In this document: positions 1,378 through 62,389 of the stretch, in pieces | Position numbering within the stretch: position 1 is the first letter of the stretch | How the letters are laid out: every line of letters begins with the position of its first letter | Made by a program: the position numbers and the translations under genes | Assembly: GCA_964539665.1 (NCBI GenBank) | Contig: CAZIKB010000003.1 | Location: 60,062-124,061 of the forward strand | DNA length: 64,000 nt | Direction of reading: 5' to 3' | Source: an uncultured Cytophagia bacterium | GTDB taxonomy: Bacteria > Zhuqueibacterota > Zhuqueibacteria > Oceanimicrobiales > Oceanimicrobiaceae | The notes under the pieces: generated by a model | The model's input: only the letters and a program-made list of their open reading frames with translations | The model's database searches: none | Told to the model about the DNA's origin: nothing

Positions 1378-3054
1378 ATGGAAAGGAATCTATCTCAATT
1401 AGGGGGGAAACAGTATGATGTTCTGATAATTGGTGGCGGTATTTACGGTGTTTATGCTGCATGGGATGCAGCTTCAAGAGGTTTATCCGTTGCACTGATT
1501 GATAAAGCCGATTTCGGCGCAGCCACATCATCCAATAGTTTGAAAATCATTCATGGTGGTCTTCGCTATTTACAGCATGCTGATTTCAAACGTATGCGTG
1601 AATCTATCGCGGAACGACGCATACTGATGCGAATTGCTCCCCATCTTGTCCACCCGCTTCCTTGTATCATGCCTACTTACGGTCATGCCATGAAAGGTAA
1701 AGAGGTTATGGCTGTGGCGCTTTTCATGAATGACCTCGTTGGATTTGATCGGAATGGTCTTGCTGATCCTCAAAAACACCTACCACGCGGTCGGGTCATT
1801 TCAAAAAAAGAATGTTTAAAGATAATTCCAGGAATTGATGAAGAAGGCCTGACAGGTGGAGCCATCTGGTATGATTGCCAGGTGAATAATTCCGAACGTA
1901 TGCTGTTGTCTATTCTTCATTCAGCCGTGAAGGCCGATGCAGTAGTGGCTAATTACGTTGAAATGCTGAGTTTTATGAGGGATAAGGAGCGGGTATCAGG
2001 CGTTGTGGCAAAAGATCACATAACAGGTGAGCAAGTAGAAATCCGGGCGAAACTAGTGATCAATAACAGCGGACCCTGGGTTGAAAATATCCTTAGCCAT
2101 TTGAATGGACACTCGATACAACCTGAGATTAAGATGTCAGCAGCGATGAATTTGGTGTTAAAGAGACAAATTATATCTGAATACGCTGCAGGCATTTGGA
2201 GTAAGGCTACATTTAAAGATACGGATGCGTTAATTAGTAAGGGGTCCCGGCTTTTTTTTATTACTCCCTGGCAAAATTATTCAATAATTGGTACAACCCA
2301 TGTTCATTATGAAGGTGATCCGGGTCAATTCAAAATACGTGAACAGGATATTCAATCGTTTGTCAACGAGGTCAATGAGGCGTATCCAGCCGCCAATATA
2401 AAAAGGGAAGATGTCTCATTTTTTTATGGCGGCCTGCTGCCGGCCGATGCAAACCAGCCTGACACGGGAGATGTAAAACTGTTGAAGAGTTACAGGATTA
2501 TTGACCATGAAATTGAAAGTGGCATTAAAGGCTTGCTTTCGGTAGTCAGTGTGAAATATACCACAGCCAGAGATGTTGCGCAAAAAACCGTAGATTATAT
2601 TTTCAATAAATTAAATATTCAATCTCCTGCGTGTCAAACTTCGAGTGTGCCGCTATTTGGCGGTGAAATTGAGTTGTTTGACGATTTTCTAAAAAAAGAA
2701 AAAGCTAAAGCTATGAAGGGATTAAGCGAAGATATAATTGAGCATTTAATTAAGAATTACGGTTCAGAATATAAAAGAATTTTAAATTATACAGATGAAA
2801 ATTCTGATTGGGCTGAAACAGTAAATGATTCGTCAAATGTTTTAAAAGCGGAAATCATTCATACAGTCCGGGAAGAAATGGCGCTAAAGCTTCGTGATGT
2901 TGTCAGGATACGCACAGAACTTGGCAGTGCAGCTTATCCGGGTCTGGAGACTCTTGAAACCTGTGCAGCTTTAATGGCGCATGAATTAGGTTGGGATGCT
3001 AAAAAAATACAAAGTGAAATTGATGAAGCTAAGGCTATTTATGTGCCAGCATAA
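1378..3054 (+). CDS. FAD-dependent oxidoreductase of the glycerol-3-phosphate dehydrogenase (GlpA/GlpD) family
   Basis: The N-terminus DVLIIGGGIYGVYAAWDAASRGLSVALIDKADFGAATSSNSLKIIHGGLRYLQ is the canonical GlpD/GlpA FAD-binding signature. Length is 558 aa. Confidence 0.7.
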   Translation: MERNLSQLGGKQYDVLIIGGGIYGVYAAWDAASRGLSVALIDKADFGAATSSNSLKIIHGGLRYLQHADFKRMRESIAERRILMRIAPHLVHPLPCIMPTYGHAMKGKEVMAVALFMNDLVGFDRNGLADPQKHLPRGRVISKKECLKIIPGIDEEGLTGGAIWYDCQVNNSERMLLSILHSAVKADAVVANYVEMLSFMRDKERVSGVVAKDHITGEQVEIRAKLVINNSGPWVENILSHLNGHSIQPEIKMSAAMNLVLKRQIISEYAAGIWSKATFKDTDALISKGSRLFFITPWQNYSIIGTTHVHYEGDPGQFKIREQDIQSFVNEVNEAYPAANIKREDVSFFYGGLLPADANQPDTGDVKLLKSYRIIDHEIESGIKGLLSVVSVKYTTARDVAQKTVDYIFNKLNIQSPACQTSSVPLFGGEIELFDDFLKKEKAKAMKGLSEDIIEHLIKNYGSEYKRILNYTDENSDWAETVNDSSNVLKAEIIHTVREEMALKLRDVVRIRTELGSAAYPGLETLETCAALMAHELGWDAKKIQSEIDEAKAIYVPA

Positions 3055-3102
3055 TTAATTTGTGATTTAGTTTTTTAATTTTTGCAGGACCGATAATTAC
3101 TT

Positions 3103-4089
3103 ATGGGCAAAGAAGCGTTTGTAACAGGGGCGAACGGTTTTACGGGTAGTCACCTTTGTAAATTATTAATTGAAAAAGGTTACTCGGTAAATGCAATGGT
3201 AAGAAATTCGAGCAAATGTGTAATTTTAGAAGAAATGGGCGCCAAAATTGTTGTAGCCGATTTGTCCGATTCATTTTCGCTCGATGGGATTTTAAAAGAT
3301 ACAGATGTCGTCTATCACATTGCGGCGGCTTACCGACAGGAAGGTATCTCGAAAGAACTTTTTTGGAAGGTAAATGTTGATGGGACTCGCAAATTACTTG
3401 AACAATCTAAAGCAAGCGGTGTTAAACGTTTTGTGCATTGCAGTACAGTTGGTGTGCAGGGTGAAATAGCCAAACCGCCGGCAAAAGAAACTGATCCGTA
3501 TAAACCAGGCGACCATTATCAGGAATCGAAAATGGAGGGGGAGAAAATAGCTCGGGGCTATTTTGAAAAATATGGTATGGAAGGAGTTATTGTTCGTCCG
3601 GTAGGCATTTATGGTCCTGGAGATACACGATTTTTAAAATTGTTTAAGTATATTAATAATGGTAAATTTAGAATGATTGGCTCGGGAGAAGTCCTTTATC
3701 ATTTGACTTTTGTGGAAGATTTAGTTAATGGTATTTCGCTGGCCGGTGAAAAACCGGCAGCTGTCGGGCATATATACACAATCGGTGGCAATGAATATTT
3801 AACTCTTAAGGAGCTTGTTGTGTTAATTGCCGAGGTTCTTGGAAAACCGGCGTCGAGAAAATATTTGCCCTTAAAACCAGTCTACTGGGCTGCAACTGTG
3901 TGCGAAGCCGTCTGCAGGCCATTAGGAATAGAACCGCCATTATATCGCCGCAGGCTTGATTTTTTTACTAAAGACAGAGCATTTGATATTTCGAAAGCTA
4001 AAAATGAATTGGGCTATCTGCCCAAAATGCCCTTAAAGGACGGCCTGGCAATTACCGCGGAATGGTACAAAAAACATGGCCTGATTTGA
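3103..4089 (+). CDS. NAD-dependent epimerase/dehydratase (SDR family)
   Basis: It has a VTGANGFTGSHL Rossmann motif and a YxxxK (YQESK) catalytic dyad. Length is 328 aa. Confidence 0.75.
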   Translation: MGKEAFVTGANGFTGSHLCKLLIEKGYSVNAMVRNSSKCVILEEMGAKIVVADLSDSFSLDGILKDTDVVYHIAAAYRQEGISKELFWKVNVDGTRKLLEQSKASGVKRFVHCSTVGVQGEIAKPPAKETDPYKPGDHYQESKMEGEKIARGYFEKYGMEGVIVRPVGIYGPGDTRFLKLFKYINNGKFRMIGSGEVLYHLTFVEDLVNGISLAGEKPAAVGHIYTIGGNEYLTLKELVVLIAEVLGKPASRKYLPLKPVYWAATVCEAVCRPLGIEPPLYRRRLDFFTKDRAFDISKAKNELGYLPKMPLKDGLAITAEWYKKHGLI

Positions 4090-4113
4090 AATTAAATAAT
4101 TGAGGAAATTGAA

Positions 4114-5124
4114 GTGAAAACTGCTGCTGTAAAAAATGTAGAACCCAATATAGAGGAAGAAGAGCAATCGCAAAAGAGAGATTCTAAAAGCTGGCTTATG
4201 ATGGCGATTAAAATCGTAATCAGCGCTTCGCTCATAATCTTTCTGGTCAATAAAACCAATCTGACAGAAATTTGGCGATCAATGAAATCCGCCAACATGC
4301 TTCTCATCTGGTTGTCGTTTTTACTGCATGGGATTGGCTATTTCTCCAGTTCCTACCGCTGGCGACTGCTGTTACTCGCTCAGGGATATGATGTGTCTGT
4401 TGGTTATTTGGTTCGATCTTATGCAGTTGCCATGTTTTTCAATAATCTTTTACCTTCCACTATCGGAGGAGATGGCTACCGCGCTTATGATACATCCAAA
4501 TGTAATATACCGAAATTAAAAGCATTGGCTATTGTGATCGTCGAAAGATTTTTAGGATTATTTGCTTTAATGGTATTTGCTATGCTGGCGCTGGCTTTGG
4601 CGACTGAACTTACCACGCAAATTGAAAATCTCTGGATCTGGTCGTTTTTAACTTTTTCAGCTATGCTGGTTGCGGTGTGGTTAATATTCTTTCACAGTGG
4701 AAAAGTACCCTGGCTGCGAAAAATTTTGAATATGCCGGGAATGAGTATTGTAAACAAACTGCTCATGAAAATCACAGACTCATTTGCGCCGTTTCGCAGA
4801 AAAACCAAAGCATTGAGTTGGGGTCTGGTTTTATCTCTTGTTTTACAAATAAATGTCATCTTCCATTATTATCTGATTTCTGAAGCCCTGGGTCTGTCAA
4901 TTCCTTTTGTGAAATTTTTGGTCATCATTCCTTTGTCTATCTTCATTCAAATGGTGCCGGTTTCGATTAACGGAATTGGCCTTCGCGAGTCGTTCTATGT
5001 GTTCTTCTTATCAACAATTTATGGCGCGCCAATCGCGGCCGCTCTGGCTTTTTCCTGGATTGCTTACGGGATGATTCTACTTTTAGGCATCTTTGGTGGA
5101 GTGATTTATGCTTTCAGAAAATAA
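4114..5124 (+). CDS. Flippase-like multi-pass membrane protein (UPF0104 / lysyl-phosphatidylglycerol-synthase TM-region family)
   Basis: The protein is 336 aa with about 8 predicted TM helices. The SYRWRLLL and GGDGYRAYD motifs are typical of UPF0104 proteins that pair with GT2 enzymes. It has a GTG start. Confidence 0.5.
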   Translation: MKTAAVKNVEPNIEEEEQSQKRDSKSWLMMAIKIVISASLIIFLVNKTNLTEIWRSMKSANMLLIWLSFLLHGIGYFSSSYRWRLLLLAQGYDVSVGYLVRSYAVAMFFNNLLPSTIGGDGYRAYDTSKCNIPKLKALAIVIVERFLGLFALMVFAMLALALATELTTQIENLWIWSFLTFSAMLVAVWLIFFHSGKVPWLRKILNMPGMSIVNKLLMKITDSFAPFRRKTKALSWGLVLSLVLQINVIFHYYLISEALGLSIPFVKFLVIIPLSIFIQMVPVSINGIGLRESFYVFFLSTIYGAPIAAALAFSWIAYGMILLLGIFGGVIYAFRK

Positions 5125-5181
5125 AGTACTGCAAGCGTCATCGTTTGCGATTTATTACAAAATCTATTTTAGGAGTTATAA

Positions 5182-5979
5182 ATGAGTGAAAATAACAATC
5201 CGAAAATCATGGATACGCAAAAAGAGCTTTTTGATGAAAAAAAGTCAAAAGCCAAGAAATACCAGGAAATTTTTATAGGGGAGCCGGGATTCTTTAAGAT
5301 GGTCAAATATGAGCTAATCATTACTTTGTTTAGCTGGGTTCCTGGTGCAATGGGGATTTTTTTACGCTCTTTTTTTTATCGTTATATTTTAGGTTCAACG
5401 GGGCGAGGAGTTGCGCTCGGAGCAAATATTGCTATTCGGCACCCAGGTAAAATCCACCTCGGAAATAATGTTGTGATAGATGATAATTGTGTTATGGATG
5501 CGAAAGGCGAAAACAACCAGGGAATCAAAATTGAAAATGGCGTTTTTGTTGGACGCGGAACCATACTGACCTGCCATAATGGAGACATTATTCTTGAGGA
5601 TAATGTGAACATCGGCTTCAATTGTGTTATCTCTTCACTCAGCCGCATCGTTATAAAAAAGAACCACCTGATGGCTGCTTTTTGTTATTTGGTCGGAGGC
5701 GATCACGACAGCGATCGCACCGATATTCCGGTTCTGCACCAGGGTCGGTCATCCAAAGGAATCACCATCGATGAAAACGTCTGGCTGGGAGCTGGTGTGG
5801 CTGTGTTGGATGGCGTCACCATCGGGCGTGATAGCATAATTGGTGCGGGCGCAGTTGTAAACAAGGATGTCCAGGAATATGCTATCGCGGCAGGATTGCC
5901 TGCCAAATTTTTGTGGGACCGTCGGAAGGGCAAAGAACATAATGAAATTTTAAAAGGCGAGGCAGTCGAACAGAAATAA
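5182..5979 (+). CDS. Hexapeptide-repeat (LbH) acyltransferase with an N-terminal membrane segment
   Basis: Repeated [LIV]G-x-x-x-x hexapeptides occur (IGRDSIIGAGAVV, LGAGVAVLDGVTIG). This resembles WcaF/NeuD-like polysaccharide O-acetyltransferases. Confidence 0.6.
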   Translation: MSENNNPKIMDTQKELFDEKKSKAKKYQEIFIGEPGFFKMVKYELIITLFSWVPGAMGIFLRSFFYRYILGSTGRGVALGANIAIRHPGKIHLGNNVVIDDNCVMDAKGENNQGIKIENGVFVGRGTILTCHNGDIILEDNVNIGFNCVISSLSRIVIKKNHLMAAFCYLVGGDHDSDRTDIPVLHQGRSSKGITIDENVWLGAGVAVLDGVTIGRDSIIGAGAVVNKDVQEYAIAAGLPAKFLWDRRKGKEHNEILKGEAVEQK

Positions 5980-6012
5980 ATTTTATATATTCGATTAAAT
6001 ACGGAGAAGTAC

Positions 6013-7893
6013 ATGATTTACGGTATTGTTAACCGCTCAAAAGAGCAGAATGTCAGTCAGGGAGGATTGATAAAACTACGGCCAGAACATTTATCAGGTA
6101 AAGCGGTCAATACTTTTATTAACCAGAATGTAGCCTTGGGAATCAGCGAAATAGGAGTTCCAACCATTGATGAACGGGTAGGAATAGCTTTTAGCTCAGA
6201 TAAGCAGATTGCAGTCGCTGCAACCGGGAATATTTTTAGAAGTAATGAAGACGTGTCTGAGAAGTCAAGCGGGACGAGGTCAACAAAGACAGATGTGGCT
6301 AAATTGATTTTAACCTGCTACCAAAAATCAGCGGATAGTGGTTTTAAAAAATTAAATGGTCAATTTGCTGCTGCTATCTGGGATGCCGCCAAAAACAGAT
6401 TTTTACTTGTGCGGGATCATCTGGGTTTTGAACCGCTGTTTTATTACTGGGATGAGAAAACCCTTGTATTTTGCTCGTCCTTGAAAGCCTTGCTGCAATT
6501 TGAGAAAATTAAAGATCAGCTTAATTACCGGGCTATACGAAACTATCTGCTTTTCAATTATAATCCGGGATTAGATACATTTATTCAGAATGTTAAAAAA
6601 GTGCAACCTGGATTTTGCTTGATTTTAGAAAATGAAAAATTAACTCCAAAAAAGTACTGGTTTTTGTCCTACCAAAATCAAAATGGTCGTCAGCTTGAAG
6701 AGTACACAGAAGAGCTTATTTTTTTAACCAAAGATTCTATTAAAATCCGGGCGAATGAAAGCAGCTCTGATCCTGGTGCGTTTCTTAGTGGTGGCATGGA
6801 TTCGAGTTCCGTGGTCGGTCTGCTAAGTGGATTGGTGGATAGACCCGTTCATACTTTTTCATTCAGGTGCCGTGAAAAATCTGTTGACGAGTCATACTAT
6901 GCCAGGGTTATGGCCGAACATTATAAAACTCAACATCATGAGGTTGAATTCACCGCAGATGAACTCATAAACCTTGAGAAAATGACGGACTGGATGGAAG
7001 AGCCGTTATGTGATATCGGTGTGGAACTGGGCTCGTACATTTTAGGAAAAGCCGCTCAAAAGGATGTGCAATATATTCTCACTGGCGATGGTGGAGATGA
7101 ACTCTATGCCGGGCATCCGGTTTATATGGCTGATAAAATTGCCAGACTGTTCGATATTGTTCCCGGCCCTTTGAGATTCGGTATCACAAAAGCTGCGCAG
7201 ATTCTGCCAGACTCCGATAAAAAGAAAAGTTTGCTGGTAAAAACTCGCCGTTTTGCTTACAGCTACAGTTTCCCAGCGGAACTCTTAAGTAACCGCTGGC
7301 GGATTTATTATAATGACCGTGAGCTTGCTAAACTCTGTACACCTGAACTGGTCTCTGGATTCGGCGATTTGAACTCGTATAAAGATATCACAGATCTTTA
7401 TTCTGATGCAGATGGAAATGATTTTCTCAGCAATTCGCTCTATGGCGATTATCAAACGCTTGTGCATTTTCATGTTGATAGATTGCGACTAACCCGCGCG
7501 TTTGGCATCGAAGCGCGATTCCCTCTGCATGATTACCGTCTTATTGAATTTTCGGCTACTATTCCCCCTGAATTGAAAATTAAGGGTTACTCACAGGTTA
7601 AATATATCCAGAAGAAAGCATTAGAAGGAATTCTACCGGATGAAATTGTGCACCGAAAGGACAAAATGGGGCACAATGTGCCCATGAAAAACTGGATGCG
7701 CGATACAACCCAATTTAGAGATTTGCTAAATGATGTTTTATCTGAATCTGCTGTTAAAAACCGCAACTTTTTTAATCCAAAAATAATTCAGGAAATGTTA
7801 GAAGCCCATTTAAAAAAGAGAAAGGACTACTCCCATCGCCTTTACGCCCTCTTGATATTAGAACTTTGGCTGCAGAAAAATCTTGATAATTAA
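6013..7893 (+). CDS. Asparagine synthetase-family amidotransferase that lacks the N-terminal Cys2 nucleophile
   Basis: The 626 aa protein has an SGGMDSS PP-loop and an AsnB synthetase domain. The first ATG follows an in-frame stop with a GGAG RBS, and translation begins MIYGIV instead of MCGI. Confidence 0.8.
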   Translation: MIYGIVNRSKEQNVSQGGLIKLRPEHLSGKAVNTFINQNVALGISEIGVPTIDERVGIAFSSDKQIAVAATGNIFRSNEDVSEKSSGTRSTKTDVAKLILTCYQKSADSGFKKLNGQFAAAIWDAAKNRFLLVRDHLGFEPLFYYWDEKTLVFCSSLKALLQFEKIKDQLNYRAIRNYLLFNYNPGLDTFIQNVKKVQPGFCLILENEKLTPKKYWFLSYQNQNGRQLEEYTEELIFLTKDSIKIRANESSSDPGAFLSGGMDSSSVVGLLSGLVDRPVHTFSFRCREKSVDESYYARVMAEHYKTQHHEVEFTADELINLEKMTDWMEEPLCDIGVELGSYILGKAAQKDVQYILTGDGGDELYAGHPVYMADKIARLFDIVPGPLRFGITKAAQILPDSDKKKSLLVKTRRFAYSYSFPAELLSNRWRIYYNDRELAKLCTPELVSGFGDLNSYKDITDLYSDADGNDFLSNSLYGDYQTLVHFHVDRLRLTRAFGIEARFPLHDYRLIEFSATIPPELKIKGYSQVKYIQKKALEGILPDEIVHRKDKMGHNVPMKNWMRDTTQFRDLLNDVLSESAVKNRNFFNPKIIQEMLEAHLKKRKDYSHRLYALLILELWLQKNLDN

Positions 7894-7908: not shown

Positions 7909-8514
7909 ATGCCTTTACCGTTTGGACATTCTTTGATGGGATATACCCTGTACGAAACTATGCCCCACAAAGCAAAGGGATTAAATTGGCGAATGTTAAT
8001 GCTATTCATTGTGATAGCAAATTTGCCGGATATTGATTTTCTCCCGGGATTTCTGGGGGGTAATCCAAACATATATCATCATCATTATTTGAGCCATAGT
8101 ATAGGATTTGCAGTGTTCATTGGTGGTATGTTTGCATGGTTTTTTTCTTTTAAGAAGGGTGGAAATTTTCTGTCGTATTTTCTGATATTTACAAGTGTTT
8201 GTTATTCACATATAATAATGGACCTGGTTACAGCCGACACTGGTGAACCTTTTGGTGTGCCGATGTTTTGGCCTTTAACAAAAACATATTATTATTCTCC
8301 TTTTTCTATATTTATGTCGTTACATAAGATTGGATTAAATAAAGAATTCATTCAAAGTTTGTTTGTATTGCACAACCTCTGGGTAGCGCTTTGGGAGATT
8401 GTAATTTTTATGCCAATTTTGACAATAATAACGGTAGTGAAAATGTGTAGAAAATCTCAAAAAAAAAGAGACCGTGTGGGAAATTTAAAGTCAGATATCG
8501 TCTCAACAACATAG
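7909..8514 (+). CDS. Membrane-bound metal-dependent hydrolase-like protein (YdjM/DUF457-like)
   Basis: The 201 aa protein is hydrophobic and has His-rich segments (HHHYLSHSIGF). Confidence 0.35.
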   Translation: MPLPFGHSLMGYTLYETMPHKAKGLNWRMLMLFIVIANLPDIDFLPGFLGGNPNIYHHHYLSHSIGFAVFIGGMFAWFFSFKKGGNFLSYFLIFTSVCYSHIIMDLVTADTGEPFGVPMFWPLTKTYYYSPFSIFMSLHKIGLNKEFIQSLFVLHNLWVALWEIVIFMPILTIITVVKMCRKSQKKRDRVGNLKSDIVSTT

Positions 8515-8581: not shown

Positions 8582-9553
8582 ATGAATCAAATTGAATATT
8601 CGGTTGTAGTTCCTGTTATGGATGAAGAAGACAATGTGAAAATTCTTTATAACGGGATAAAAGAAGTACTGCAAAAAATGGGGAAGTCTTATGAAATAAT
8701 ATTCGTCGATGATGGCAGTACTGACCGGACATTTTCCATTATGAAATCGATTAATAATCAGGATCATGATTTTAAAGTAATTAAATTCAGACGTAATTTT
8801 GGTCAATCTGCTGCGATGGCTGCTGGATTCGATCAGGCAAAGGGTAAGATTGTCATTTCCATGGATGGTGATTTGCAGAATGATCCAAAGGATATTCCGG
8901 CCCTGGTTGAAAAGATTCATGAGGGCTATGACATTGTGGCTGGTTGGCGAAAAAACCGAAAAGATAAATTGTTAATTAGAAAAGTCCCTTCAAAGATTGC
9001 AAATAGAATTATACGATATTTAACCGGCGTCCAGTTGCATGACACTGGCTGCTCCCTGAAAGCATATCGGCTGGAGGTGATAAAGAAAATCAGACTTTAT
9101 GGAGAATTGCATCGATTTATTCCGGCGCTGGCTCGCATTGAAGGCGCCCGAATATCTGAAATGATTGTTTCGCATCACCACCGTAAATTTGGTAAATCGA
9201 AATACAACTTGACCCGCACCTTCAAGGTAGTGATGGATTTAACAACTCTGAATCTTTTCATCAAATATTTAAATAATCCAGTTCATTTTTTTGGCATGCT
9301 GGGTTTTGTGTTTAATTTTATCGGAACATTTGCATTATGTATTTGTGGCTATTTATTTTTAAGGGAAGTTTATGATTTGCCCGGATTAAATGTATTTATT
9401 TCTTTTGCGTTTTTATTGATTGCTTCAGGCTGTCAATTTTTCTTCTACGGCCTGATTGCAAACATGGTCGTAAAAACTGGTGAAGATAATAATAATAAAC
9501 TTATGGAGTACTATTCAAAAGCTAATCTTCGTGAAGGTAATAAACTGACATGA
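8582..9553 (+). CDS. GT2 glycosyltransferase, polyprenyl-phosphate sugar synthase-like (DPM1/GtrB/ArnC type)
   Basis: It has VVVPVMDEE, FVDDGSTD and MDGDLQNDP motifs plus C-terminal TM helices. Length is 323 aa. Confidence 0.75.
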   Translation: MNQIEYSVVVPVMDEEDNVKILYNGIKEVLQKMGKSYEIIFVDDGSTDRTFSIMKSINNQDHDFKVIKFRRNFGQSAAMAAGFDQAKGKIVISMDGDLQNDPKDIPALVEKIHEGYDIVAGWRKNRKDKLLIRKVPSKIANRIIRYLTGVQLHDTGCSLKAYRLEVIKKIRLYGELHRFIPALARIEGARISEMIVSHHHRKFGKSKYNLTRTFKVVMDLTTLNLFIKYLNNPVHFFGMLGFVFNFIGTFALCICGYLFLREVYDLPGLNVFISFAFLLIASGCQFFFYGLIANMVVKTGEDNNNKLMEYYSKANLREGNKLT

Positions 9554-9602
9554 TTTTTAAATGTTTAGTCACAAACTCTTAGCTCAATAGTATCAATTTA
9601 AT

Positions 9603-10616
9603 TTGGAAATAAATTCGATGGAAGAACAAATAATTACTCGTAGTACGCCACAAGATGGGGAAAGTGAGCAAGTCATGTTACCTCCAAAAGATAAAACCTC
9701 CATCATTATTACCGTAAAAAACTTTGAATCAGAGATCGGTGAAATAAATCAAACATTGCTCGCGAGTTTAGAAAAATCCAACGATGATTTTGAAGTGATC
9801 TATATCGATGATGGCAGCCTTGATAATACCTGGGAAGCGCTCAAGCAACAGGCTCTGAATGACAGGCGCATTAAATTGATTCGAATGCGCACTTCATTCG
9901 GGGAGTCTGCTGCATTCGAGGCAGGAATCAAACATGCTCAGGGCGACCGGATCGTGTTTTTTGCAACGAGGGTGCGGATCAATCCTGCTCAAATTTCAAA
10001 TTTAGTGGCAAAGTTAAAAGATGATTATGATTTAGTTATGGGTTGGCGGCATCCCCGTCGGGATTCGCTGTTAAATAGAGTTATCTCAAAAACATTTAAT
10101 ATGATGATTAAATGGATTTCTAAGATAACATTGCATGATATAAATAGCGGAGTTTTTGCCACCAGAAAAGAAGTTTTGCAGGATGTCCCAATTTATGGTA
10201 ATTTGAACATTTTCCTGCCAATTTTAGCAACCAGAAAGGGCTACCGGGTAGGGGACGAACAGATCGAACAACTTCCCGGAAAATTTCGGCAGTCGAAATA
10301 TTTCTCCGAATATATTCAAAGGCTTCTGGACATGGTCACTGTAATCTTCCTGACCAATTATTCCAAGAAACCTCTGCACTTCTTAGGCTTCTTTGGTATT
10401 ATTTTTACGATAATTGGTGCAGGAATGAATCTGTACCTGTTTATTTACAGGTTGCTGGAATTTGGCCCGATTGCTGGTCGGCCGCTCCTTCTACTTGGAG
10501 CATTGCTGTTAGTAATTGGCATCCAGATGATTTCAATCGGATTAATAGGCGAAATGATTATTTTTACCCATGCGAAAGAAATCAAAGAATATACAATTGA
10601 AGAAATTTTGGATTAA
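9603..10616 (+). CDS. GT2-like paralog lacking the catalytic DXD motif, probably degenerate
   Basis: It has a YIDDGSLDNT motif and C-terminal TM helices. The position of the DGD/DAD motif reads FFATRVRINP. Confidence 0.6.
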   Translation: MEINSMEEQIITRSTPQDGESEQVMLPPKDKTSIIITVKNFESEIGEINQTLLASLEKSNDDFEVIYIDDGSLDNTWEALKQQALNDRRIKLIRMRTSFGESAAFEAGIKHAQGDRIVFFATRVRINPAQISNLVAKLKDDYDLVMGWRHPRRDSLLNRVISKTFNMMIKWISKITLHDINSGVFATRKEVLQDVPIYGNLNIFLPILATRKGYRVGDEQIEQLPGKFRQSKYFSEYIQRLLDMVTVIFLTNYSKKPLHFLGFFGIIFTIIGAGMNLYLFIYRLLEFGPIAGRPLLLLGALLLVIGIQMISIGLIGEMIIFTHAKEIKEYTIEEILD

Positions 10617-10637
10617 AAAATATACATTGGATTTATT

Positions 10638-11624
10638 ATGAAGCTCATTATTCAAATTCCTTGTTTAAATGAAGAAAAGTCCTTACCTGAGACTTTGAAT
10701 GATTTACCAGATTCCATTGAAGGTGTGGATGAAATCGAAACCTTGATTATTGACGATGGCAGTGAAGACCGGACTATAGAAGTTGCACGCGAGTCAGGGG
10801 TGAATCATATTGTACAACACACAAATAATAAAGGGCTTGCAGAAGCATTTGTGACTGGTATTGACGCCTGCCTTAAACTCGGCGCGGACATTATTGTCAA
10901 TACTGACGGGGACAATCAATATAATGGCCGTAGCATCGTAGATTTGATTGATCCGATTCTAAAACGCAAAGCGGATATGGTTGTGGGAGATCGGCAGGTA
11001 AACGGTATTCCTCATTTTTCGTTTTTTAAAAAACGTTTGCAATCTCTGGGCAGTTGGGTTGTTCAGCATATCTCTGATACGAAGGTTCCCGATACCACCA
11101 GTGGCTTCCGAGCGTTCAGCCGCGAAGCAGCGCTTCGAATGAATGTTATTTCAAGGTTTACCTACACGCTCGAGACTATTATTCAGGCAGGGAAAAGCAA
11201 TGTCGCTATTACGCATGTTCCAGTAGAGACCAATGAGAAACTGCGGGATTCGCGTCTTTTCAAAAGCATACCTAATTATATTAAGCGCTCTGTGGCAACA
11301 ATATTTAGAATTTACACAATGTATGAACCGCTCAAGACATTTTCGATGATTGGAGGTTTTGTTTTTGGCGGCGGTATGCTCTTGTCTTTAAGATATCTAT
11401 ATTTTTATTTTACAACCGGCGGCGGAGGACATATTCAGTCTTTAATCCTTGCCGCTGTGCTCATGTTAATAGGATTTCAGGTGATTATGATTGGGCTCCT
11501 CGCTGATTTAATTCGCGGTAATCGTCGTTTAATTGAAGATACGCAATACCGGGTAAAAAAGATGGAGATAGGACATTTGTACAAAGATGTCAAATTGAAT
11601 GAAAAAAACAGAGAAGAAAGTTAA
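10638..11624 (+). CDS. GT2 glycosyltransferase, polyprenyl-phosphate sugar synthase-like
   Basis: It has IIDDGSEDRT and NTDGDNQY motifs with a C-terminal TM region. Length is 328 aa. Confidence 0.7.
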   Translation: MKLIIQIPCLNEEKSLPETLNDLPDSIEGVDEIETLIIDDGSEDRTIEVARESGVNHIVQHTNNKGLAEAFVTGIDACLKLGADIIVNTDGDNQYNGRSIVDLIDPILKRKADMVVGDRQVNGIPHFSFFKKRLQSLGSWVVQHISDTKVPDTTSGFRAFSREAALRMNVISRFTYTLETIIQAGKSNVAITHVPVETNEKLRDSRLFKSIPNYIKRSVATIFRIYTMYEPLKTFSMIGGFVFGGGMLLSLRYLYFYFTTGGGGHIQSLILAAVLMLIGFQVIMIGLLADLIRGNRRLIEDTQYRVKKMEIGHLYKDVKLNEKNREES

Positions 11625-18698: not shown

Positions 18699-20384
18699 AT
18701 GATTAGTTCTAACTTTAATAATAAACTCGCGAAGAGATTAATTTATTTATGGCTGTTGGGCTGTCTGTGTATTGGTGGATTCCTACGTTTTTATCAATTG
18801 GGCGGTCCAAGTGTTTGGGTTGACGAGTTGAATCACCTTTATGCGGGACAATCATTAATAGAAAACGGCAGCCCGGAGCTCCCTTCCGGACAATTATACG
18901 ATCGCGCATTGATATACTCGAAATTAGTTTCATACTCATTCCAGGTGCTGGGTGTTAATGAATTTAGTTTGCGACTGCCCAGCGCAATAATTGGCCTGTT
19001 ATGTTTAGTTCTAATTTATTTCGTAGCAAAACGTTTTTTTGGAGTAACTCCAGCACTGTTATCTGTATTATTTTTAGCTATTTCGCCGTTTGAGATTGGT
19101 TGGTCACGAATTTCAAGAATGTACACGCTATTCCAGTTTTTATTCCTCCTGGGAATTTATACTTTTTATCTTGGTTTTGAAAGTGAAAACAAAGATACGT
19201 TTTCGAGAGTACAAACGAATATATTAAAGCGGTTCACAGCGGGGGGAATTATTAATTTCATAGAAAGTTGGAATCTCAATCTTATTTGGCTATCAATTTC
19301 AGTCATATTTCTAACGGTATCCTACTTTGTGCATCAGCTCACTGCCTTATTTTTTGTTGGAATTCTGTTTTATTTAGCGCTCATGTTTTTAGTACAATGG
19401 CGTAATGAAAGTTTTTTGCAGGCGCTAAAGGGGAAATATTTCATACTTTTGGTTTTATCGCTGGGCATGACGGGGATTATGATTTTAGTTGTTCCCGGAA
19501 TAATTGCATTTGTGCAATACGCTGTTTTATATTCGCCCAAATGGGCTGCCATGCCTAAATTCCAAAATCCCAAACTTTATCTTGATTTTATTTTTGACCA
19601 ATATAATTTTCCCATGGGAGTGTTGTTTGTATTAGGCATCTACCAGGTGATGAGCAGGTTACATCGATTTGGATATTATATTGTTTCTATTTTCATGGCT
19701 TGTCTGTTACTGTTTACATTTGTTTTTTCTTACCGGCATTTGCAGTATTTGTACAATATTTATCCAATATTAATTATAGTCAGCGCTTACGCATTTTCAA
19801 ATATTGTCAATAGTGAATCAGGAAGAATTAAAACAGCCTGGTTCAAAAAGAGTCGATTAAATGATGTGATTTTTAAGGCGCTCATTGTTTGTTGTTTTTT
19901 AGTCTGGATTCCACTGACTCCATCCTTACGGTTAGCAAGGCGTATTCCATTCTCTAAGGATGGCGGTTTCAATGGCGCTGTTTTTTTGACGGAACATCGA
20001 CAGGCTTGCAATTACATACGAGAAAATTGCAGAAATGATGATCTGATAATATCATCAGACGCATTGGGAACACTTTACTATCTGGAGCGAGTCGATTATG
20101 ATCTTAATTTTGCAGATTTTGATCTTTCAAAAGAAAAAGATTTAAAAAATAATCAGGGAGAATATTTTGATCTTTACTCTGGAAAACCGTTCTTACAAAG
20201 TGTGTCGCAGTTACAAACCTTAATGGAACAATACAACTCTATTTGGCTGGTCTCTGAAGACTATAAATTTTCCCGGGCGCCAGTTTATGTACCGACCCCT
20301 ATTCGGGAATTTGTTTTAGCTAATTTTGAAAAAGTATTCACAACAAAGAATGGTACTATTTTAGTGTTTCATTTTTCCAAATAA
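18699..20384 (+). CDS. GT-C membrane glycosyltransferase (GT39/GT83 PMT/ArnT-like)
   Basis: The 561 aa protein has multiple N-terminal TM helices with a DE motif in the first loop (VWVDELNH) and a large C-terminal soluble domain. Confidence 0.5.
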   Translation: MISSNFNNKLAKRLIYLWLLGCLCIGGFLRFYQLGGPSVWVDELNHLYAGQSLIENGSPELPSGQLYDRALIYSKLVSYSFQVLGVNEFSLRLPSAIIGLLCLVLIYFVAKRFFGVTPALLSVLFLAISPFEIGWSRISRMYTLFQFLFLLGIYTFYLGFESENKDTFSRVQTNILKRFTAGGIINFIESWNLNLIWLSISVIFLTVSYFVHQLTALFFVGILFYLALMFLVQWRNESFLQALKGKYFILLVLSLGMTGIMILVVPGIIAFVQYAVLYSPKWAAMPKFQNPKLYLDFIFDQYNFPMGVLFVLGIYQVMSRLHRFGYYIVSIFMACLLLFTFVFSYRHLQYLYNIYPILIIVSAYAFSNIVNSESGRIKTAWFKKSRLNDVIFKALIVCCFLVWIPLTPSLRLARRIPFSKDGGFNGAVFLTEHRQACNYIRENCRNDDLIISSDALGTLYYLERVDYDLNFADFDLSKEKDLKNNQGEYFDLYSGKPFLQSVSQLQTLMEQYNSIWLVSEDYKFSRAPVYVPTPIREFVLANFEKVFTTKNGTILVFHFSK

Positions 20385-21551: not shown

Positions 21552-22610
21552 ATGATTTCTAAATTAGTTTTAGAAGATGGTTCGGTATATACTGGTGAGG
21601 CTTTTGGCGATCTCAAATCTGTGGCGGGCGAAGTCGTGTTCAACACTGGAATGGTGGGATACCCTGAGTGCATGACAGATCCTTCCTATGAAGGTCAAAT
21701 TCTTATTTTCACCTATCCGCTTATCGGCAACTATGGTGTTCCATCTGCTCAGGGTGGAAATGGTTTGTTGGAACAAAATTTTGAATCAGATAGAATCCAT
21801 ATTGCCGGTTTGGTTGTGTCTGAACATTCCAGAGATTTTAGCCACTGGAAAGGCCAATCAAATTTAGACACCTGGCTTAAGTCAAATCAAGTCCCGGGGA
21901 TAAGCGGCATAGACAGCCGTTTATTGACTCAAAAGTTGCGAGAAAAAGGCTCAATGCTGGGTAAGTTGGTTACTCACCATCATGATGTTGATTTTAAAGA
22001 TCCAAATCTGGAAAATTTAGTGGCGAGAGTTTCTCCAAATAAACCCATTGAATATGGCAATGGTAGTAAGAGAGTGCTGGTTGTCCATTGTGGATGTAAA
22101 TTAAATATCATCCGCTGCCTTTTAAAAAGAAATGTTTCTGTTTTAGCAGTGCCATGGGATTGGGAAATCGGCAAAGAACAGTTTGATGGAGTGGTAATTT
22201 CTAATGGACCTGGCGATCCAAAGATGTGTGATGTTACCATAAGAAACATCCGGAAATTATTTGATCGAGACCTGCCAGTTTTCGGTATCTGTTTAGGTAA
22301 TCAGATTCTTGCTTTAGCTGCAGGGGCGGATACATATAAGCTAAAATATGGACACAGAAGCCAGAATCAACCCTGTATACTTGTAGGAAGTAAACGTTGT
22401 TATATTACTTCGCAGAATCATGGCTATGCGGTTGATGAAAAGTCTTTGACAGCAGATTGGGAACCCTGGTTTTTTAACGCCAATGATGGCACTAATGAAG
22501 GCATCCGAAATCGCACCAAGCCGTTTTTTGGAGTACAATTTCATCCAGAGGCTTCACCCGGCCCTCTCGATACCAGTTATCTTTTTGATGAATATATAAA
22601 ATTGTTATAA
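21552..22610 (+). CDS. carA: Carbamoyl-phosphate synthase small subunit (glutamine amidotransferase)
   Basis: It has the CarA N-domain and a class-I GATase domain with GICLGNQ and HPE motifs. Length is 352 aa. Confidence 0.85.
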   Translation: MISKLVLEDGSVYTGEAFGDLKSVAGEVVFNTGMVGYPECMTDPSYEGQILIFTYPLIGNYGVPSAQGGNGLLEQNFESDRIHIAGLVVSEHSRDFSHWKGQSNLDTWLKSNQVPGISGIDSRLLTQKLREKGSMLGKLVTHHHDVDFKDPNLENLVARVSPNKPIEYGNGSKRVLVVHCGCKLNIIRCLLKRNVSVLAVPWDWEIGKEQFDGVVISNGPGDPKMCDVTIRNIRKLFDRDLPVFGICLGNQILALAAGADTYKLKYGHRSQNQPCILVGSKRCYITSQNHGYAVDEKSLTADWEPWFFNANDGTNEGIRNRTKPFFGVQFHPEASPGPLDTSYLFDEYIKLL

Positions 22611-22611
22611 T

Positions 22612-27620: not shown

Positions 27621-27621
27621 T

Positions 27622-28059
27622 ATGAATTTAATCGATGACATAAAGTTTGAAATAACAAAGTTAAAAGAAGATAAGAGCACCTTAAGAAAATTTGCAATTA
27701 CCATAGCATCCGCACTTTGCATTATAGGTGCTTTAGTATTCTTTCTTGGAAGCAGGGCAGAGACCGCATTCTGGTTATGGGGATTTGGATCATCCATTTT
27801 AATATTAGGTATCACGGTTCCCAATGTCTTAAAGCCATTTCACCTATTGTGGATGACATTGGCCTTTGTTTTAGGTTGGTTTGTATCACGCTTAATTCTA
27901 AGCATAGTTTTTTATTTAGTGATGACACCCATCGGATTAGTAATGAAAATCATCGGAAAAGATCTGATAAATCAAAAGCTTGAAAAGAATAATTTATCTT
28001 ACTGGATAAAACGTGACCCGGTAAATAGGAATCCTGAAAGTTATGAAAAATTATTCTAA
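27622..28059 (+). CDS. SxtJ-like small membrane protein
   Basis: The 145 aa protein has 3-4 TM segments and lies immediately downstream of the carbamoyltransferase. Confidence 0.45.
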   Translation: MNLIDDIKFEITKLKEDKSTLRKFAITIASALCIIGALVFFLGSRAETAFWLWGFGSSILILGITVPNVLKPFHLLWMTLAFVLGWFVSRLILSIVFYLVMTPIGLVMKIIGKDLINQKLEKNNLSYWIKRDPVNRNPESYEKLF

Positions 28060-28068
28060 GAGGTTGAC

Positions 28069-28227
28069 ATGAGCAAAATCTCAATAATAAAAGAATTTAG
28101 TCAATTTCTTATTTATAGAAAAAAATGGTGGTTAACTCCAATTGTAATTGTATTATTGCTGCTTGGTGCTTTAATCATTTTGACTGAAGGCAGTGCATTG
28201 GCACCGTTCATTTACACCTTATTTTAG
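28069..28227 (+). CDS. DUF5989/SxtK-like small membrane protein (52 aa); absent from the ORF track because it is under 60 aa
   Basis: Translation is MSKISIIKEFSQFLIYRKKWWLTPIVIVLLLLGALIILTEGSALAPFIYTLF, which matches the RKKWW...APFIYTLF family signature. Confidence 0.55.
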   Translation: MSKISIIKEFSQFLIYRKKWWLTPIVIVLLLLGALIILTEGSALAPFIYTLF

Positions 28228-30785: not shown

Positions 30786-32477
30786 ATGCTTCAATTAAAT
30801 AAATATCTAAATTTGAAAAAAAATAATAAAAATAAATCAGTGCAATTAGTGCTTTTTATTACAGTCGTGGGTATAATCTTTCGATTATTTCTAATGCGCT
30901 ATAGATTTGCTGTTGGATTTGATGAAGTTAATTATTTAAAACTTGGAGTGAGCGGTCACTTGAACGGATTATCCGATATTCTACATACTTACTGGTCACC
31001 GCTTCTACCGATGCTAATTTCATTCTCGAGTGGAATTTTTGATAATTATGAATTTGCTGGTCGTATTATATCAATTTTAGCCGGAACATTATTAGTAATT
31101 CCGGTTTATAGCCTGGGCAAATATGTTTATGATGAGAAAATCGGACTGATTGCGGCTGGATTTGTTGCTATTTATCCACCATTGGCTTTTCAAGCAACGA
31201 ATGTCAAGACAGAACCTGTTTATATGCTTTTCGCAATCATTGCAATTATTTTTGGCCTGCGAATGTTAAATCGAGAATCAAAGGGATTTGCCTTTCTTGC
31301 CGGATTATTTTCAGGTTTAGCTTATCTTACCCATCCCCAGGGTATGGGCTTTTGTATTGTGATTGCGTTTTGGATTTTATTTAGTACCTTGTTCAGGCTC
31401 TATGCATTTCGATTTCGACGAATGATTGTGCTGTTCGCTATTTTGAGTTTTGGTTTTATCATTATTGCTGCTCCTTATTTAATTTATTTGAAAAAGGCAA
31501 CCGGAGGCTGGACTTTAAGCGCCAAAGGCGCTGCAAATCAGCAAATGGAGGCTCACGTGAGTGAAGAAGGGCAAGATGCGTTTCGAGCGCTGGATGCAAG
31601 TAACAAAAACGTGCTCTTCGATCAAATTTTTCATAAAGGTGATTTCTTGGATGCAACCAATGATGGAACGGATCCTGTGACAGTAGTCAGGCTCGGCCCG
31701 CTCTTTTTCAAGTATATTGAGAACCTGGCAAACATGTTAAAAGGTACAATTCCGGAATTTTTTACTACCCTGCCGATGATTCTTTTGGGAATCGGTTTGT
31801 TTGGAGAAAGATGGCAATCCCAACAAGGCAAAATCATCCTGTATCTTGTAAGCTTCATTGTGTTTTTTTGGTTAATATTAATTCCATTGTTTCATCTCAA
31901 TTTAAGGTACCTTTCACCACTCTGGCCGCTCTGTGCAATATGGATTGCAAAAGGCGCCAGCCACATATATGGTTGGTTAGCATCTTATATGCCGTTGGTA
32001 AACTTTTCGAAGAGATTTGATAACAAATTAAATTCTAATACTGTTGCAGTGGTTATTATTCTTGCAGTTTTTTTTAGTTTGACTTTTCTGCCGGAATTGG
32101 GACGTGTTATATCAAGACGTTCAGATACGAGAGAATACTGGGGTGATGCTGTAGATCAAAAAAAAGCAGGCCTTTGGATAAAAGAAAAAATGCCTGGAGA
32201 TAAGTCAATTATGAGTTATAATCATGCGGTAAGTTTTTATGCCGGCAGCTATGATATTAGCCAATCTATTGAAATTCCTGATAATGGGATAGAACGCATT
32301 TTGAAATACGCAAAGTATAGAAAAGTAAATTTACTTGTTCTAAATGAAAGATATAAAATAGTTTTTCCCAGAATCAATTATTTATTAAGTTCTGAAAATG
32401 TCCCGGATGGACTTGAATTAGTTTATCAGGATATGGATCGTTCAGGACTAAAAACCGTGATATATAAAATATTGTAA
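30786..32477 (+). CDS. GT-C membrane glycosyltransferase (PMT/ArnT-like, second copy)
   Basis: The 563 aa protein has a DE motif in its first loop (GFDEVNYL), more than 10 TM helices and a C-terminal soluble domain. Confidence 0.5.
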   Translation: MLQLNKYLNLKKNNKNKSVQLVLFITVVGIIFRLFLMRYRFAVGFDEVNYLKLGVSGHLNGLSDILHTYWSPLLPMLISFSSGIFDNYEFAGRIISILAGTLLVIPVYSLGKYVYDEKIGLIAAGFVAIYPPLAFQATNVKTEPVYMLFAIIAIIFGLRMLNRESKGFAFLAGLFSGLAYLTHPQGMGFCIVIAFWILFSTLFRLYAFRFRRMIVLFAILSFGFIIIAAPYLIYLKKATGGWTLSAKGAANQQMEAHVSEEGQDAFRALDASNKNVLFDQIFHKGDFLDATNDGTDPVTVVRLGPLFFKYIENLANMLKGTIPEFFTTLPMILLGIGLFGERWQSQQGKIILYLVSFIVFFWLILIPLFHLNLRYLSPLWPLCAIWIAKGASHIYGWLASYMPLVNFSKRFDNKLNSNTVAVVIILAVFFSLTFLPELGRVISRRSDTREYWGDAVDQKKAGLWIKEKMPGDKSIMSYNHAVSFYAGSYDISQSIEIPDNGIERILKYAKYRKVNLLVLNERYKIVFPRINYLLSSENVPDGLELVYQDMDRSGLKTVIYKIL

Positions 32478-48590: not shown

Positions 48591-48611
48591 AAATCGAATT
48601 ATTGGGAGCAA

Positions 48612-61275: not shown

Positions 61276-62013
61276 ATGAAAAACGGATTTAAGGTAGCGA
61301 TTTTAGTTCCGGCATTGAACGAAGCGGATACTATCGAAAATGTTATAAAAGGGATAAAAAAAAACAATCCTGACTTTGACGTTGTTGTAATTGATGATGG
61401 CTCAACCGATAAAACAGCCGAACTGGCTGAACGTGCAGGAGCTGCCGTTCTTTCGCTTACTGTAAATTTAGGTTATGGTGCAGCCCTTCAAACGGGGTAT
61501 AAATATGCATTATTGAATGGATATGATTACACTGTGCAAATTGATGGGGACGGCCAGCACGACCCTAAATATATTAATAATTTAATCGAAACGGTGCAAA
61601 ATGGCACTGATGTAGCCATTGGCTCGAGATTTCTTGATAACCTTGGTAATTACAATCATCCAACCCTTCGCCAGATTGGAATGATGTTTTTCCGATTTTT
61701 AATTTATCTGTTTATCAATCAAAAAATATCAGATCCAACTTCAGGCTTTCAAGCCTTGAATAAAAATGTTATTTCCTATTTCGCGAAGAGCAAACAGTAT
61801 CCTTCGGATTTTCCGGATGCAGATATCATTATCCTGCTGCATTATGCCGGATTTCGAATTTCTGAGGTTCCGGTTGTCATGTTTAGAAACGAAACTGGCA
61901 AATCTATGCATAGTGGATTCAAGCCAATCTATTATATTATTAAAATGCTATTATCCATTTATGCAGTTCTTTTTGGCAACCAAAAACTTACATATACTAA
62001 AAATGCCACTTAA
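61276..62013 (+). CDS. GT2 polyprenyl-phosphate sugar synthase (GtrB/DPM1-like)
   Basis: It has VAILVPALNE, VIDDGSTDKT and QIDGDGQHDP motifs. Length is 245 aa. Confidence 0.75.
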   Translation: MKNGFKVAILVPALNEADTIENVIKGIKKNNPDFDVVVIDDGSTDKTAELAERAGAAVLSLTVNLGYGAALQTGYKYALLNGYDYTVQIDGDGQHDPKYINNLIETVQNGTDVAIGSRFLDNLGNYNHPTLRQIGMMFFRFLIYLFINQKISDPTSGFQALNKNVISYFAKSKQYPSDFPDADIIILLHYAGFRISEVPVVMFRNETGKSMHSGFKPIYYIIKMLLSIYAVLFGNQKLTYTKNAT

Positions 62014-62389
62014 AGCACAAATTATAATAATCGTTTTAAGTTTATCTCTTTTTCTTTTTGTTTTAAATTTAATTCGAAAACGACAACTAAATATTGAGCA
62101 TTCTATCCTGTGGTTAGTGGTAAGTGTGACGATTTTAATTGCTTCAATCTGGCATAATTTAGCGGACCAGGTTGCATTATTTTTAGGCATTGAATATCCT
62201 CCAGCTTTATTTTTATCCGTTGCTATTTTCTTTTCTCTCGCAATACTTATGCACTTTTCAATTGAACTTTCAAAATTAAAAGATCAAAACAAAACTTTAA
62301 TACAGGAACTGGCAATTTACAAGAACTTAATTAAAAAACTTGAAAAAAAGATAACGGAAGTTGATGAGAGTCTTAACAGTAACCCATGA
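62003..62389 (+). CDS. DUF2304-family small membrane protein (partner of GtrB-like GT2)
   Basis: Read manually from the ATG at 62003, it begins MPLKAQIIIIVLSLSLFLFVLNLIRKRQLNIEHSILW... and has 2-3 TM segments plus a C-terminal coiled segment. The ORF-track call at 61766 is an in-frame upstream extension. Confidence 0.5.
   Translation: MPLKAQIIIIVLSLSLFLFVLNLIRKRQLNIEHSILWLVVSVTILIASIWHNLADQVALFLGIEYPPALFLSVAIFFSLAILMHFSIELSKLKDQNKTLIQELAIYKNLIKKLEKKITEVDESLNSNP

Follow-up and report, generated by a model that had tools for sequence, protein, structure and literature searches.

Polyprenyl-phosphate glycosyltransferases (ArnC, GtrB, DPMS) start all extracytoplasmic glycosylation. The window analyzed here—a 64-kb gene cluster on contig CAZIKB010000003.1, with a G+C content of ~38% and with all open reading frames (ORFs) of at least 150 aa on the + strand, bar one internal overlap—carries three consecutive genes of this type, P1, P2, and P3, the middle one without a DxD motif. 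This arrangement raises the question of what P2 contributes. We propose, at a probability of about one in two, that P2 serves P1 as a lipid-binding partner without catalytic activity of its own, probably within a mixed tetramer. The data directly support the loss of the motif and its conservation, the pairing and co-diversification of P1 and P2, retention of the acceptor site, remodeling of the donor site, and a shift of constraint to the membrane part of P2; a physical complex, the lack of catalysis by P2, and a lipid-handling role are steps that we infer.

Fold and motif state of P1, P2, and P3

P1 (8582-9553, + strand; 323 aa) is a canonical polyprenyl-phosphate glycosyltransferase (Pren-P GT) with the motif DGDLQN, and P3 (10638-11624, + strand; 328 aa) is a canonical DPMS/AglJ-like Pren-P GT with DGDNQY. 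Between them lies P2 (9618-10616, + strand), a DXD-less membrane protein of the ArnC/GtrB fold that counts 332 aa from its ATG. All three ORFs of the original prediction exist; its middle one opens at 9603, an alternative TTG start (337 aa), and it is the ATG form that matches a database protein (P0001).

The DPM1/GtrB/ArnC-like architecture predicted for all three is borne out by domain matches and by full-length alignments to solved members. Pfam PF00535 (Glycos_transf_2) recognizes P1 at E = 5e-33 (114.7 bits), P2 at 1e-22 (80.9 bits), and P3 at 2e-20 (74.2 bits; cutoff 23.3). HMMER alignments that span the full length, including the transmembrane (TM) region, link P1 to ArnC at 1e-51 and to GtrB at 1e-34, and P2 to the same proteins at 5e-32 and 4e-20; the corresponding best PDB match of P3 is the Pyrococcus DPMS (PfDPMS, 6e-16). 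With the solved members as reference, all three are by predicted fold Pren-P GTs of the ArnC/GtrB/DPMS type. An AlphaFold2 model of P2 (predicted local distance difference test score 76.7, ~90 in the GT-A core) consists of a GT-A domain, a juxtamembrane helix, two TM helices, and a C-terminal strand (helices 229-248, 252-279, and 287-322; strand 327-331). Foldseek returned ArnC as its top match (8e-21), followed by GtrB and DPMS, with a probability of 1.0 over ~305-319 columns for ArnC/GtrB. P1 and P2 thereby share the ArnC/GtrB architecture of GT-A domain, juxtamembrane helices, two TM helices, and C-terminal strand.

Finer assignment by NCBIfam equivalogs was negative for P1, P2, and P3 and for ten DXD-less representatives alike: the ArnC equivalog NF007986 (cutoff 529 bits) scores 200.3 bits for P1, 124.9 for P2, and 52.8 for P3, so that none of the three qualifies as an ArnC orthologue. 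P3 resembles PfDPMS and archaeal AglJ, its best structural and NCBIfam matches, in its canonical DxDxQ and C-terminal membrane anchor; it differs from AglJ in its bacterial host and in scoring below that equivalog's cutoff (121 vs. 325 bits).

In ArnC, the motif begins with D100, which is proposed to be the catalytic base, and D102 and Q104 bind the metal; the phosphate of undecaprenyl phosphate (Und-P) is bound by R128, R131, and R137, and uridine diphosphate (UDP) by D48, N77, R205, S210, and K211 (PMC12690121, PMC12698845). The basic residues that bind polyprenyl phosphate in GtrB, R122 and R125, are the counterparts of ArnC R128 and R131. The ArnC structure paper describes DxD as conserved throughout the family. 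DxDxQ is present in P1 and P3. The segment FFATRVRINP, encoded at 9957-9986, occupies its place in P2, with the A-T-R-V-R codons at 9963..9977 (+ strand) replacing D-x-D-x-Q (ArnC D100-Q104). HMMER places P2 GDRIVFFATRVRINP opposite ArnC GDLIITLDADLQNPP without a gap, so that FFATRVRINP stands against TLDADLQNPP and the substitutions read D100->A, D102->R, and Q104->R. A shifted DXD was ruled out: both the HMMER and the MAFFT alignments are ungapped over the motif, with the flanking "GD" and "NP" in register. The predicted absence of the motif is confirmed as a substitution. Without DxDxQ, P2 is a structural homologue rather than a canonical enzymatic member of the Pren-P GT family. MAFFT and HMMER disagree at the loop that contains GtrB D157, and no claim is built on that residue.

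An old DXD-less clade paired with a dedicated canonical enzyme

Most of the comparative data come from metagenome-assembled genomes and metagenome contigs. Homologues of P2 number at least 655 at E<=1e-10; the best 120 are 54-100% identical to it and ~330 aa long. Among species-representative genomes, 154 contain relatives, and nearly all of these are metagenome-assembled genomes of the KSB1/Calditrichota type. Across 82 full-length orthologues from this group (50-80% identity), position 102, the metal Asp, is Arg in 82/82; position 104 is chiefly Arg (68), with Asn (7), His (3), and Lys (2) also present; and position 100 is Thr in 65, Ala in 12, and Ser in 5. Neither position 100 nor position 102 is acidic in any of the 82. 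R128, R131, and D133 are each present in 82/82, and D47/D48, S210, and D158 are also kept, whereas N77, R205, and K211 are not conserved. The DxDxQ triad is replaced in a protein with 61 positions at >=98% conservation that evolves about as slowly as P1.

The flanking enzymes retain what P2 has exchanged. P1 keeps every published functional residue of ArnC/GtrB; these residues are conserved in 78-79 of 79 P1 orthologues, with R128 and R131 in 79/79, and the single outlier is an ORF-calling artefact (L019). P3 orthologues have D100, D102, Q104, and R128 in 70/70, with R131 absent. As judged from these alignments, the motif loss in P2 is ancient and conserved; its conservation across P2 orthologues rules out local decay or a pseudogene.

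Phylogeny places the loss well beyond KSB1. In a search of 1.84 billion cluster representatives, the whole P2 family falls into one 50%-identity cluster, and ~42 of the 150 nearest representatives also lack DxD, most reading P-A-Y-x-Q-V. All DXD-less sequences form one exclusive clade in a neighbor-joining tree (72/72), which makes the loss ancient. P1 belongs to a separate canonical clade in which P2 is not nested, and P3 branches far outside both. The three genes had been described as tandem paralogs of which the middle one "lost" its DXD. They are homologous, but at pairwise identities of 32% (P1-P2), 22% (P1-P3), and 26% (P2-P3) and in three old clades they are not recent duplicates; a recent tandem duplication of P1 into P2 is ruled out by their different old clades and 32% identity. 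The motif is absent, but through membership of an old, widespread DXD-less clade distinct from that of P1 rather than through local loss.

This clade spans several bacterial phyla, including Proteobacteria, Planctomycetota, and Nitrospirales. A profile built from non-KSB1 DXD-less sequences matched 1,817 clusters at E<=1e-30 (clusters at 90% identity, ~1,800; motif state of the matches unscreened), and the named organisms among these matches include Salinisphaera, Ectothiorhodospiraceae, Planctomycetota, and Nitrospirales, some with the gene on complete chromosomes. A metagenome scan added >600 matches, a lower bound. Source databases give the DXD-less proteins no specific names: All are now labeled just "glycosyltransferase," which makes the clade a matter for annotation as well. 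We found no description of DXD-less or inactive ArnC/GtrB-type paralogs, or of such pairs, in the searchable literature, and the clade and its pairing are apparently undescribed.

The DXD-less gene seldom stands without a canonical neighbor. Within KSB1-type loci, the gene order YdjM-P1-P2-P3 is essentially invariant, with median gaps of -4, 19, and 4 nt, and a P1 orthologue lies directly upstream of P2 in 77/77 loci where both are callable. A scan of the window found no terminator-like sites in the P1-P2 or P2-P3 spacers; Rfam had no matches anywhere in the window, and the Rfam and promoter/terminator scans added nothing further. A canonical GT2 gene directly precedes the DXD-less gene in all six distant loci inspected individually, and in 83 further loci (L083-L165), a canonical gene with the motif D[GA]D[LM]QN is the immediate 5' neighbor of 53 of the 55 assessable DXD-less genes; the paired genes overlap or are separated by short spacers. 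Of the four loci first flagged as unpaired, two (L083 and L147) proved to be ORF-start artefacts with the canonical gene in place upstream.

The pairing extends to the phylogeny of the canonical partner. The canonical enzymes of the pairs, among them P1 of KSB1, group in a clade of their own (32/32) without any solo canonical representative, and a solo DGDLQN-type enzyme with no DXD-less neighbor (P0210) falls outside it. Pairwise distances within the partner and DXD-less clades are correlated in a mirror-tree comparison (r = 0.916). P3 adjoins the pair within the KSB1 lineage and is not part of it elsewhere. The triad named in the original prediction is indeed conserved in KSB1, but the relevant unit is the P1-P2 pair, and P3 is, on its sequence and genomic distribution, an independent canonical synthase. 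The Pren-P GT family therefore also includes a large multi-phylum clade without DxD whose members occur almost exclusively downstream of a dedicated canonical partner.

Two apparent fusions were examined and rejected. A natural P1-P2 fusion in L019, which would have been Rosetta-stone evidence, is an artefact: The two ORFs share a frame and are separated by one stop codon. A 633-aa protein (P0121) is not a P1-P2 fusion, as it joins two canonical (DADLQD) Pren-P GT modules, each complete, end to end. As an observation in its own right, P0121 indicates that covalently linked dimers of the Pren-P GT fold exist.

Residue states across the pairs separate the two sides of the active site. Among 49 non-identical pairs, all functional residues are intact in the partner. 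The DXD-less members keep R128 (49/49), R131 (48), D133 (48), D158 (49), and D48 (46), whereas D47 becomes hydrophobic, D100 Pro, D102 Tyr, S210 Arg, and K211 hydrophobic, and N77 and R205 vary; in wider DXD-less groups, position 102 is Tyr, Phe, or Ser. A cationic residue reaches the pocket by two routes, R210 in the PAY group and R102/R104 in P2. Mapped onto the ArnC sites, the predicted lipid-phosphate side is preserved, and the predicted nucleotide/metal side is rebuilt into a different, itself conserved pocket.

Regional conservation follows the same division. TM1-TM2 conservation reaches 0.81 in P2 (0.66 in the wider DXD-less set), against 0.49 in P1 (0.39 in the wider partners); for the C-terminal tail, the values are 0.83 in P2 vs. 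0.44 in P1. The nucleotide-side half shows the opposite trend (P2, 0.55; wider DXD-less, 0.54; P1, 0.69; wider partners, 0.65). By these alignment scores, regional constraint is inverted between the partners, with that on DXD-less proteins strongest in the TM helices and C-terminal tail. The near-invariant C-terminal motif GEMIIFTHAKEIKEYTIEEILD (10548..10613, + strand), which comprises the end of TM2 plus the tail strand, is a hallmark of the DXD-less proteins: GE###[FY]TH occurs in 72/82 P2 and 26/49 wider DXD-less sequences vs. 0/49 partners and 0/70 P3. Its sole match among P1 sequences is the L019 ORF artefact.

Possible roles of P2

Cryo-electron microscopy shows ArnC and GtrB to be homotetramers in which eight TM helices form a bundle and a C-terminal hairpin connects the protomers (PMC12690121, PMC12698845). 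The mixed P1-P2 tetramer is proposed because these homotetramers are held by the TM bundle and the swapped C-terminal hairpin. P1 would be the catalytic, metal-dependent partner that loads a sugar from a nucleoside-diphosphate sugar onto the lipid carrier. P2, with the same fold, would be unable to run the canonical DxD/M2+ reaction and would retain the polyprenyl-phosphate site together with its strongly constrained transmembrane and C-terminal module. Assembled with P1 in a tetramer of the ArnC/GtrB type, P2 would have a role in handling the lipid substrate or product: It might, for instance, deliver Und-P, or it might capture the Und-P-sugar and hand this over for translocation and use by the GT-C. 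A second lipid-linked sugar would come from P3 as a canonical DPMS/AglJ-like synthase in its own right.

Known systems supply partial parallels. ArnC (the Und-P 4-deoxy-4-formamido-L-arabinose transferase) and GtrB (the Und-P glucosyltransferase) are single-gene homotetramers, whereas here two co-evolving genes are paired, and P2 differs from both enzymes in lacking D100, D102, and Q104 and in its varied N77, R205, and K211 while keeping R128, R131, and D133. A precedent for a dead partner is COSMC, a GT-A paralog without DxD that serves as scaffold or chaperone for its active paralog: like P2 beside P1, it is retained beside an intact relative (T-synthase, GT31). COSMC is a eukaryotic chaperone of the endoplasmic reticulum that has also lost the xED motif, whereas P2 is a bacterial membrane protein with its lipid-phosphate site intact and its pocket rebuilt, and, in contrast to that precedent, its association with P1 is presumed.

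The absence of a clade-wide solution for nucleotide binding and the weakly conserved nucleotide-side half favor the partner model. P2 also has the apparent attributes of a pseudo-enzyme: catalytic residues lost under purifying selection, and obligate co-occurrence and co-evolution with an intact paralog. The suggestion in the original prediction of an inactive subunit or regulatory pseudo-enzyme accordingly stands as the best reading of the pairing, the co-diversification, the lost UDP and metal contacts, and the retained lipid-phosphate site; its picture of a degenerate site is too simple, given Arg102 in 82/82 and PAYxQ plus Arg210 in sister groups. This conserved alternative pocket leaves some probability to metal-independent chemistry or to the binding of another anionic ligand.

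Several points weigh against the partner model. The remodeled pocket is itself conserved (Arg102/104 in P2; Tyr102, Gln104, and Arg210 in sister groups; D48 kept), as would be expected of a metal-independent enzyme or another anionic-ligand site, and tight linkage with co-diversification is equally expected for two enzymes of consecutive steps. The interaction between P1 and P2 is itself deduced from sequence. The trees are neighbor-joining trees without bootstrap support, and the representatives were sampled by similarity to P2, so that close solo relatives of P1 may have been missed.

If P2 were an active, metal-independent Pren-P GT, Arg102 and Arg104 would neutralize the diphosphate leaving group, and the protein would make its own lipid-linked sugar, possibly from another donor nucleotide; we regard this as improbable, though a serious contender. 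The invariance of Arg102 and the frequency of Arg104 (68/82) agree with it, as do the retention of D47/D48, S210, R128, R131, and D158 in the P2 family and a rate of evolution about as slow as that of P1. GT14 (C2GnT-L) and bacterial GT6 enzymes likewise lost DxD and are still active via cationic side chains, which could replace the metal at the diphosphate. Their compensating Arg/Lys comes from the C-terminal region, however, and the GT6 motif is NXN, whereas P2 has Arg at a former metal-ligand position and nucleotide contacts that are not conserved across its clade. The sister groups have Tyr, Phe, or Ser at position 102 and a hydrophobic residue at 47, with S210/K211, N77, and R205 replaced or variable, so that no common donor-binding solution exists across the DXD-less clade. 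The proposed base D100 gives way to small or variable residues (Thr/Ala/Ser, or Pro), conservation within the protein is lowest in the nucleotide-side half, and an independent enzyme would need no strict adjacency to one dedicated partner clade. Were the DXD-less proteins active, they would be the first metal-independent members of the Pren-P GT family.

P2 could also act on the product of P1 and not on free Und-P, either as a second-step enzyme or as a binder, translocation, or hand-off factor that feeds the flippase and GT-C. A kept lipid-phosphate site beside a rebuilt donor site, strongly conserved TM helices, a PMT_2 GT-C gene directly 3' of the pair in at least eight loci, and the lack of a GtrA-type (PF04138) protein in the window or in the annotations of the six distant loci are all compatible with this role, which we nevertheless hold to be unlikely: Two Wzx-like proteins and the TIGR00374 protein at 4114 are alternative flippase candidates in the window, some pairs are not followed by a GT-C gene, and we know of no GT-A-fold protein that translocates lipids. 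The proposal overlaps the partner model, and sequence analysis cannot separate the two. The idea that P2 is a decaying, functionless duplicate of P1, by contrast, has almost no probability. Only the absence of DXD speaks for it, and it is refuted by 82 full-length orthologues at 50-80% identity with 61 positions >=98% conserved, by the at least 655 homologues at E<=1e-10, and by an ancient multi-phylum clade, with P2 outside that of P1.

The partner model, if its mixed complex is real, would provide a bacterial membrane enzyme/pseudo-enzyme pair in glycan biosynthesis and could bear on how a lipid-linked monosaccharide is handed over from its synthase to flippases and GT-C enzymes. A bolder generalization, which we consider a long shot, would make the whole DXD-less clade a dedicated lipid-handling subunit of a heteromeric polyprenyl-phosphate sugar synthase that, in GtrA-less "synthase + DXD-less + GT-C" modules, performs or gates lipid-linked sugar transfer toward the periplasmic GT-C. 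A former glycosyltransferase would then have been recruited for the translocation or hand-off of Und-P-sugar.

Pathway context and other features of the window

The original prediction embedded the three genes in a lipid-linked-monosaccharide route on top of a Wzx/Wzy pathway, and its individual gene assignments hold up. The flippase-like membrane protein at 4114..5124 (+ strand) matches PF03706 (LPG_synthase_TM, 142.5 bits) and TIGR00374 (88.6 bits, cutoff 43.2); its gene is syntenic in many KSB1 loci, and it is a candidate translocase for the lipid-linked sugar. Two GT-C glycosyltransferases of the PMT_2 type are encoded at 18699..20384 (+ strand; PF13231, 49.4 bits, cutoff 26.1) and 30786..32477 (+ strand; PF13231, 46.8 bits), 7 and 20 kb downstream. 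Orthologues of the former lie downstream of the triad in many KSB1 loci, and it is a candidate periplasmic user of polyprenyl-P-sugar. At least eight loci, though not all, have a PMT_2 GT-C gene immediately 3' of the pair. Wzx-like proteins at 17172 and 35762 and a Wzy_C protein at 32485 were identified by Pfam/NCBIfam.

A fourth Pren-P GT-like GT2, paired with a DUF2304 small membrane protein, was also correctly anticipated (61276..62389, + strand; PF00535, 94.6 bits; PF10066, 93.4 bits). The GT2 at 61276 has 245 aa and no TM segment by hydropathy, and the DUF2304 ORF is that at 61766. The best NCBIfam match of the GT2 is PpgS, at 105 bits and below the cutoff of 370. We take this arrangement to resemble the mycobacterial PpgS/Rv3632 pair.

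Gene content supports the overall logic of the proposed route: The locus has three predicted active lipid-sugar synthases and two predicted PMT_2 GT-C enzymes beside Wzx/Wzy components. Like GtrA/GtrB/GtrC and ArnC/ArnE-F/ArnT, the pair loci co-encode a cytoplasmic-face Pren-P GT and a periplasmic GT-C. The likeness to GtrABC ends at the flippase, because the window's ORFs, including those of at least 50 aa in the gaps, hold no GtrA-type protein (PF04138) and a TIGR00374 flippase-like protein instead, and at the second position, which is taken by a DXD-less synthase paralog.

Directly 5' of P1 lies a gene for a YdjM-family inner-membrane protein (7909..8514, + strand; PF04307, 64.5 bits). It is found there in 67 KSB1-type loci, with a median gap of -4 nt, and was not seen beside the pair in other phyla (six annotated distant loci). 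By analogy with ArnD, one may speculate that it is a membrane hydrolase acting on the lipid-linked sugar.

Farther upstream, genes for a GlpD-like flavin adenine dinucleotide (FAD) oxidoreductase, a short-chain dehydrogenase/reductase (SDR), the flippase-like protein, a hexapeptide transferase, and an AsnB-like protein are often syntenic in KSB1 loci, as are GT4, SDR, GT2, and PMT_2 genes downstream. In the window, this upstream part forms a conserved block at 1378-7893, 5' of the triad (also L001, L002, and L085), in which the SDR is an epimerase and the AsnB-like protein an amidotransferase; in L001, a single 610-aa protein combines the flippase-like and hexapeptide domains. The FAD oxidoreductase and SDR presumably recall the two-step epimerization of a lipid-linked sugar by DprE1/DprE2.

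A FemAB-like/Acetyltransf_6 protein of ~345 aa (62361-63401) follows the GT2-DUF2304 pair. In other phyla (L166, L168, and several metagenome loci), a ~346-aa FemAB-like ORF comes directly 3' of the canonical enzyme and its DXD-less partner gene, and the clusters that carry it repeatedly contain AsnB-like amidotransferases. The recurrence of the two hints at aminoacyl or amide decoration tied to lipid-sugar modules.

Other genes point to modification of the glycan. Carbamoyl-phosphate synthase subunits at 21552 and 22612 are followed by a carbamoyltransferase at 25785, an SxtJ-family small membrane protein at 27622-28059, and a DUF5989 protein at 28069-28227; a second carbamoyltransferase lies at 33947. 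The genes at 21552-28227 are reminiscent of the SxtI/SxtJ/SxtK trio known from saxitoxin clusters, in this case within a polysaccharide locus. The combination of carbamoyltransferases with carbamoyl-phosphate synthase suggests O-carbamoylated sugars made from a dedicated carbamoyl-phosphate supply. Proteins of the alkaline-phosphatase superfamily (Sulfatase/Phosphodiest) are dense between 37249 and 59529 (at 37249, 43768, 45855, 48612, 50788, and 58183). The same region encodes an adenosine 5'-phosphosulfate kinase at 57560 and, at 54799-57435, an 878-aa fusion of ATP sulfurylase with a Phosphodiest/sulfatase-like domain, of which we know no earlier description. From this fusion and the abundance of paralogs, the glycan may be sulfated or carry a phospho-modification.

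Two ORF-poor gaps of ~1.1 kb, at 29629-30785 and 47514-48611, break up a cluster that is elsewhere densely packed on one strand; the second holds only a 99-aa DUF2061 ORF at 48291. Within the biosynthetic cluster, 38685-43731 encodes a GHL15/Golvesin_C protein (38685) and a GH39 glycoside hydrolase (41923), which may trim or process the polymer.

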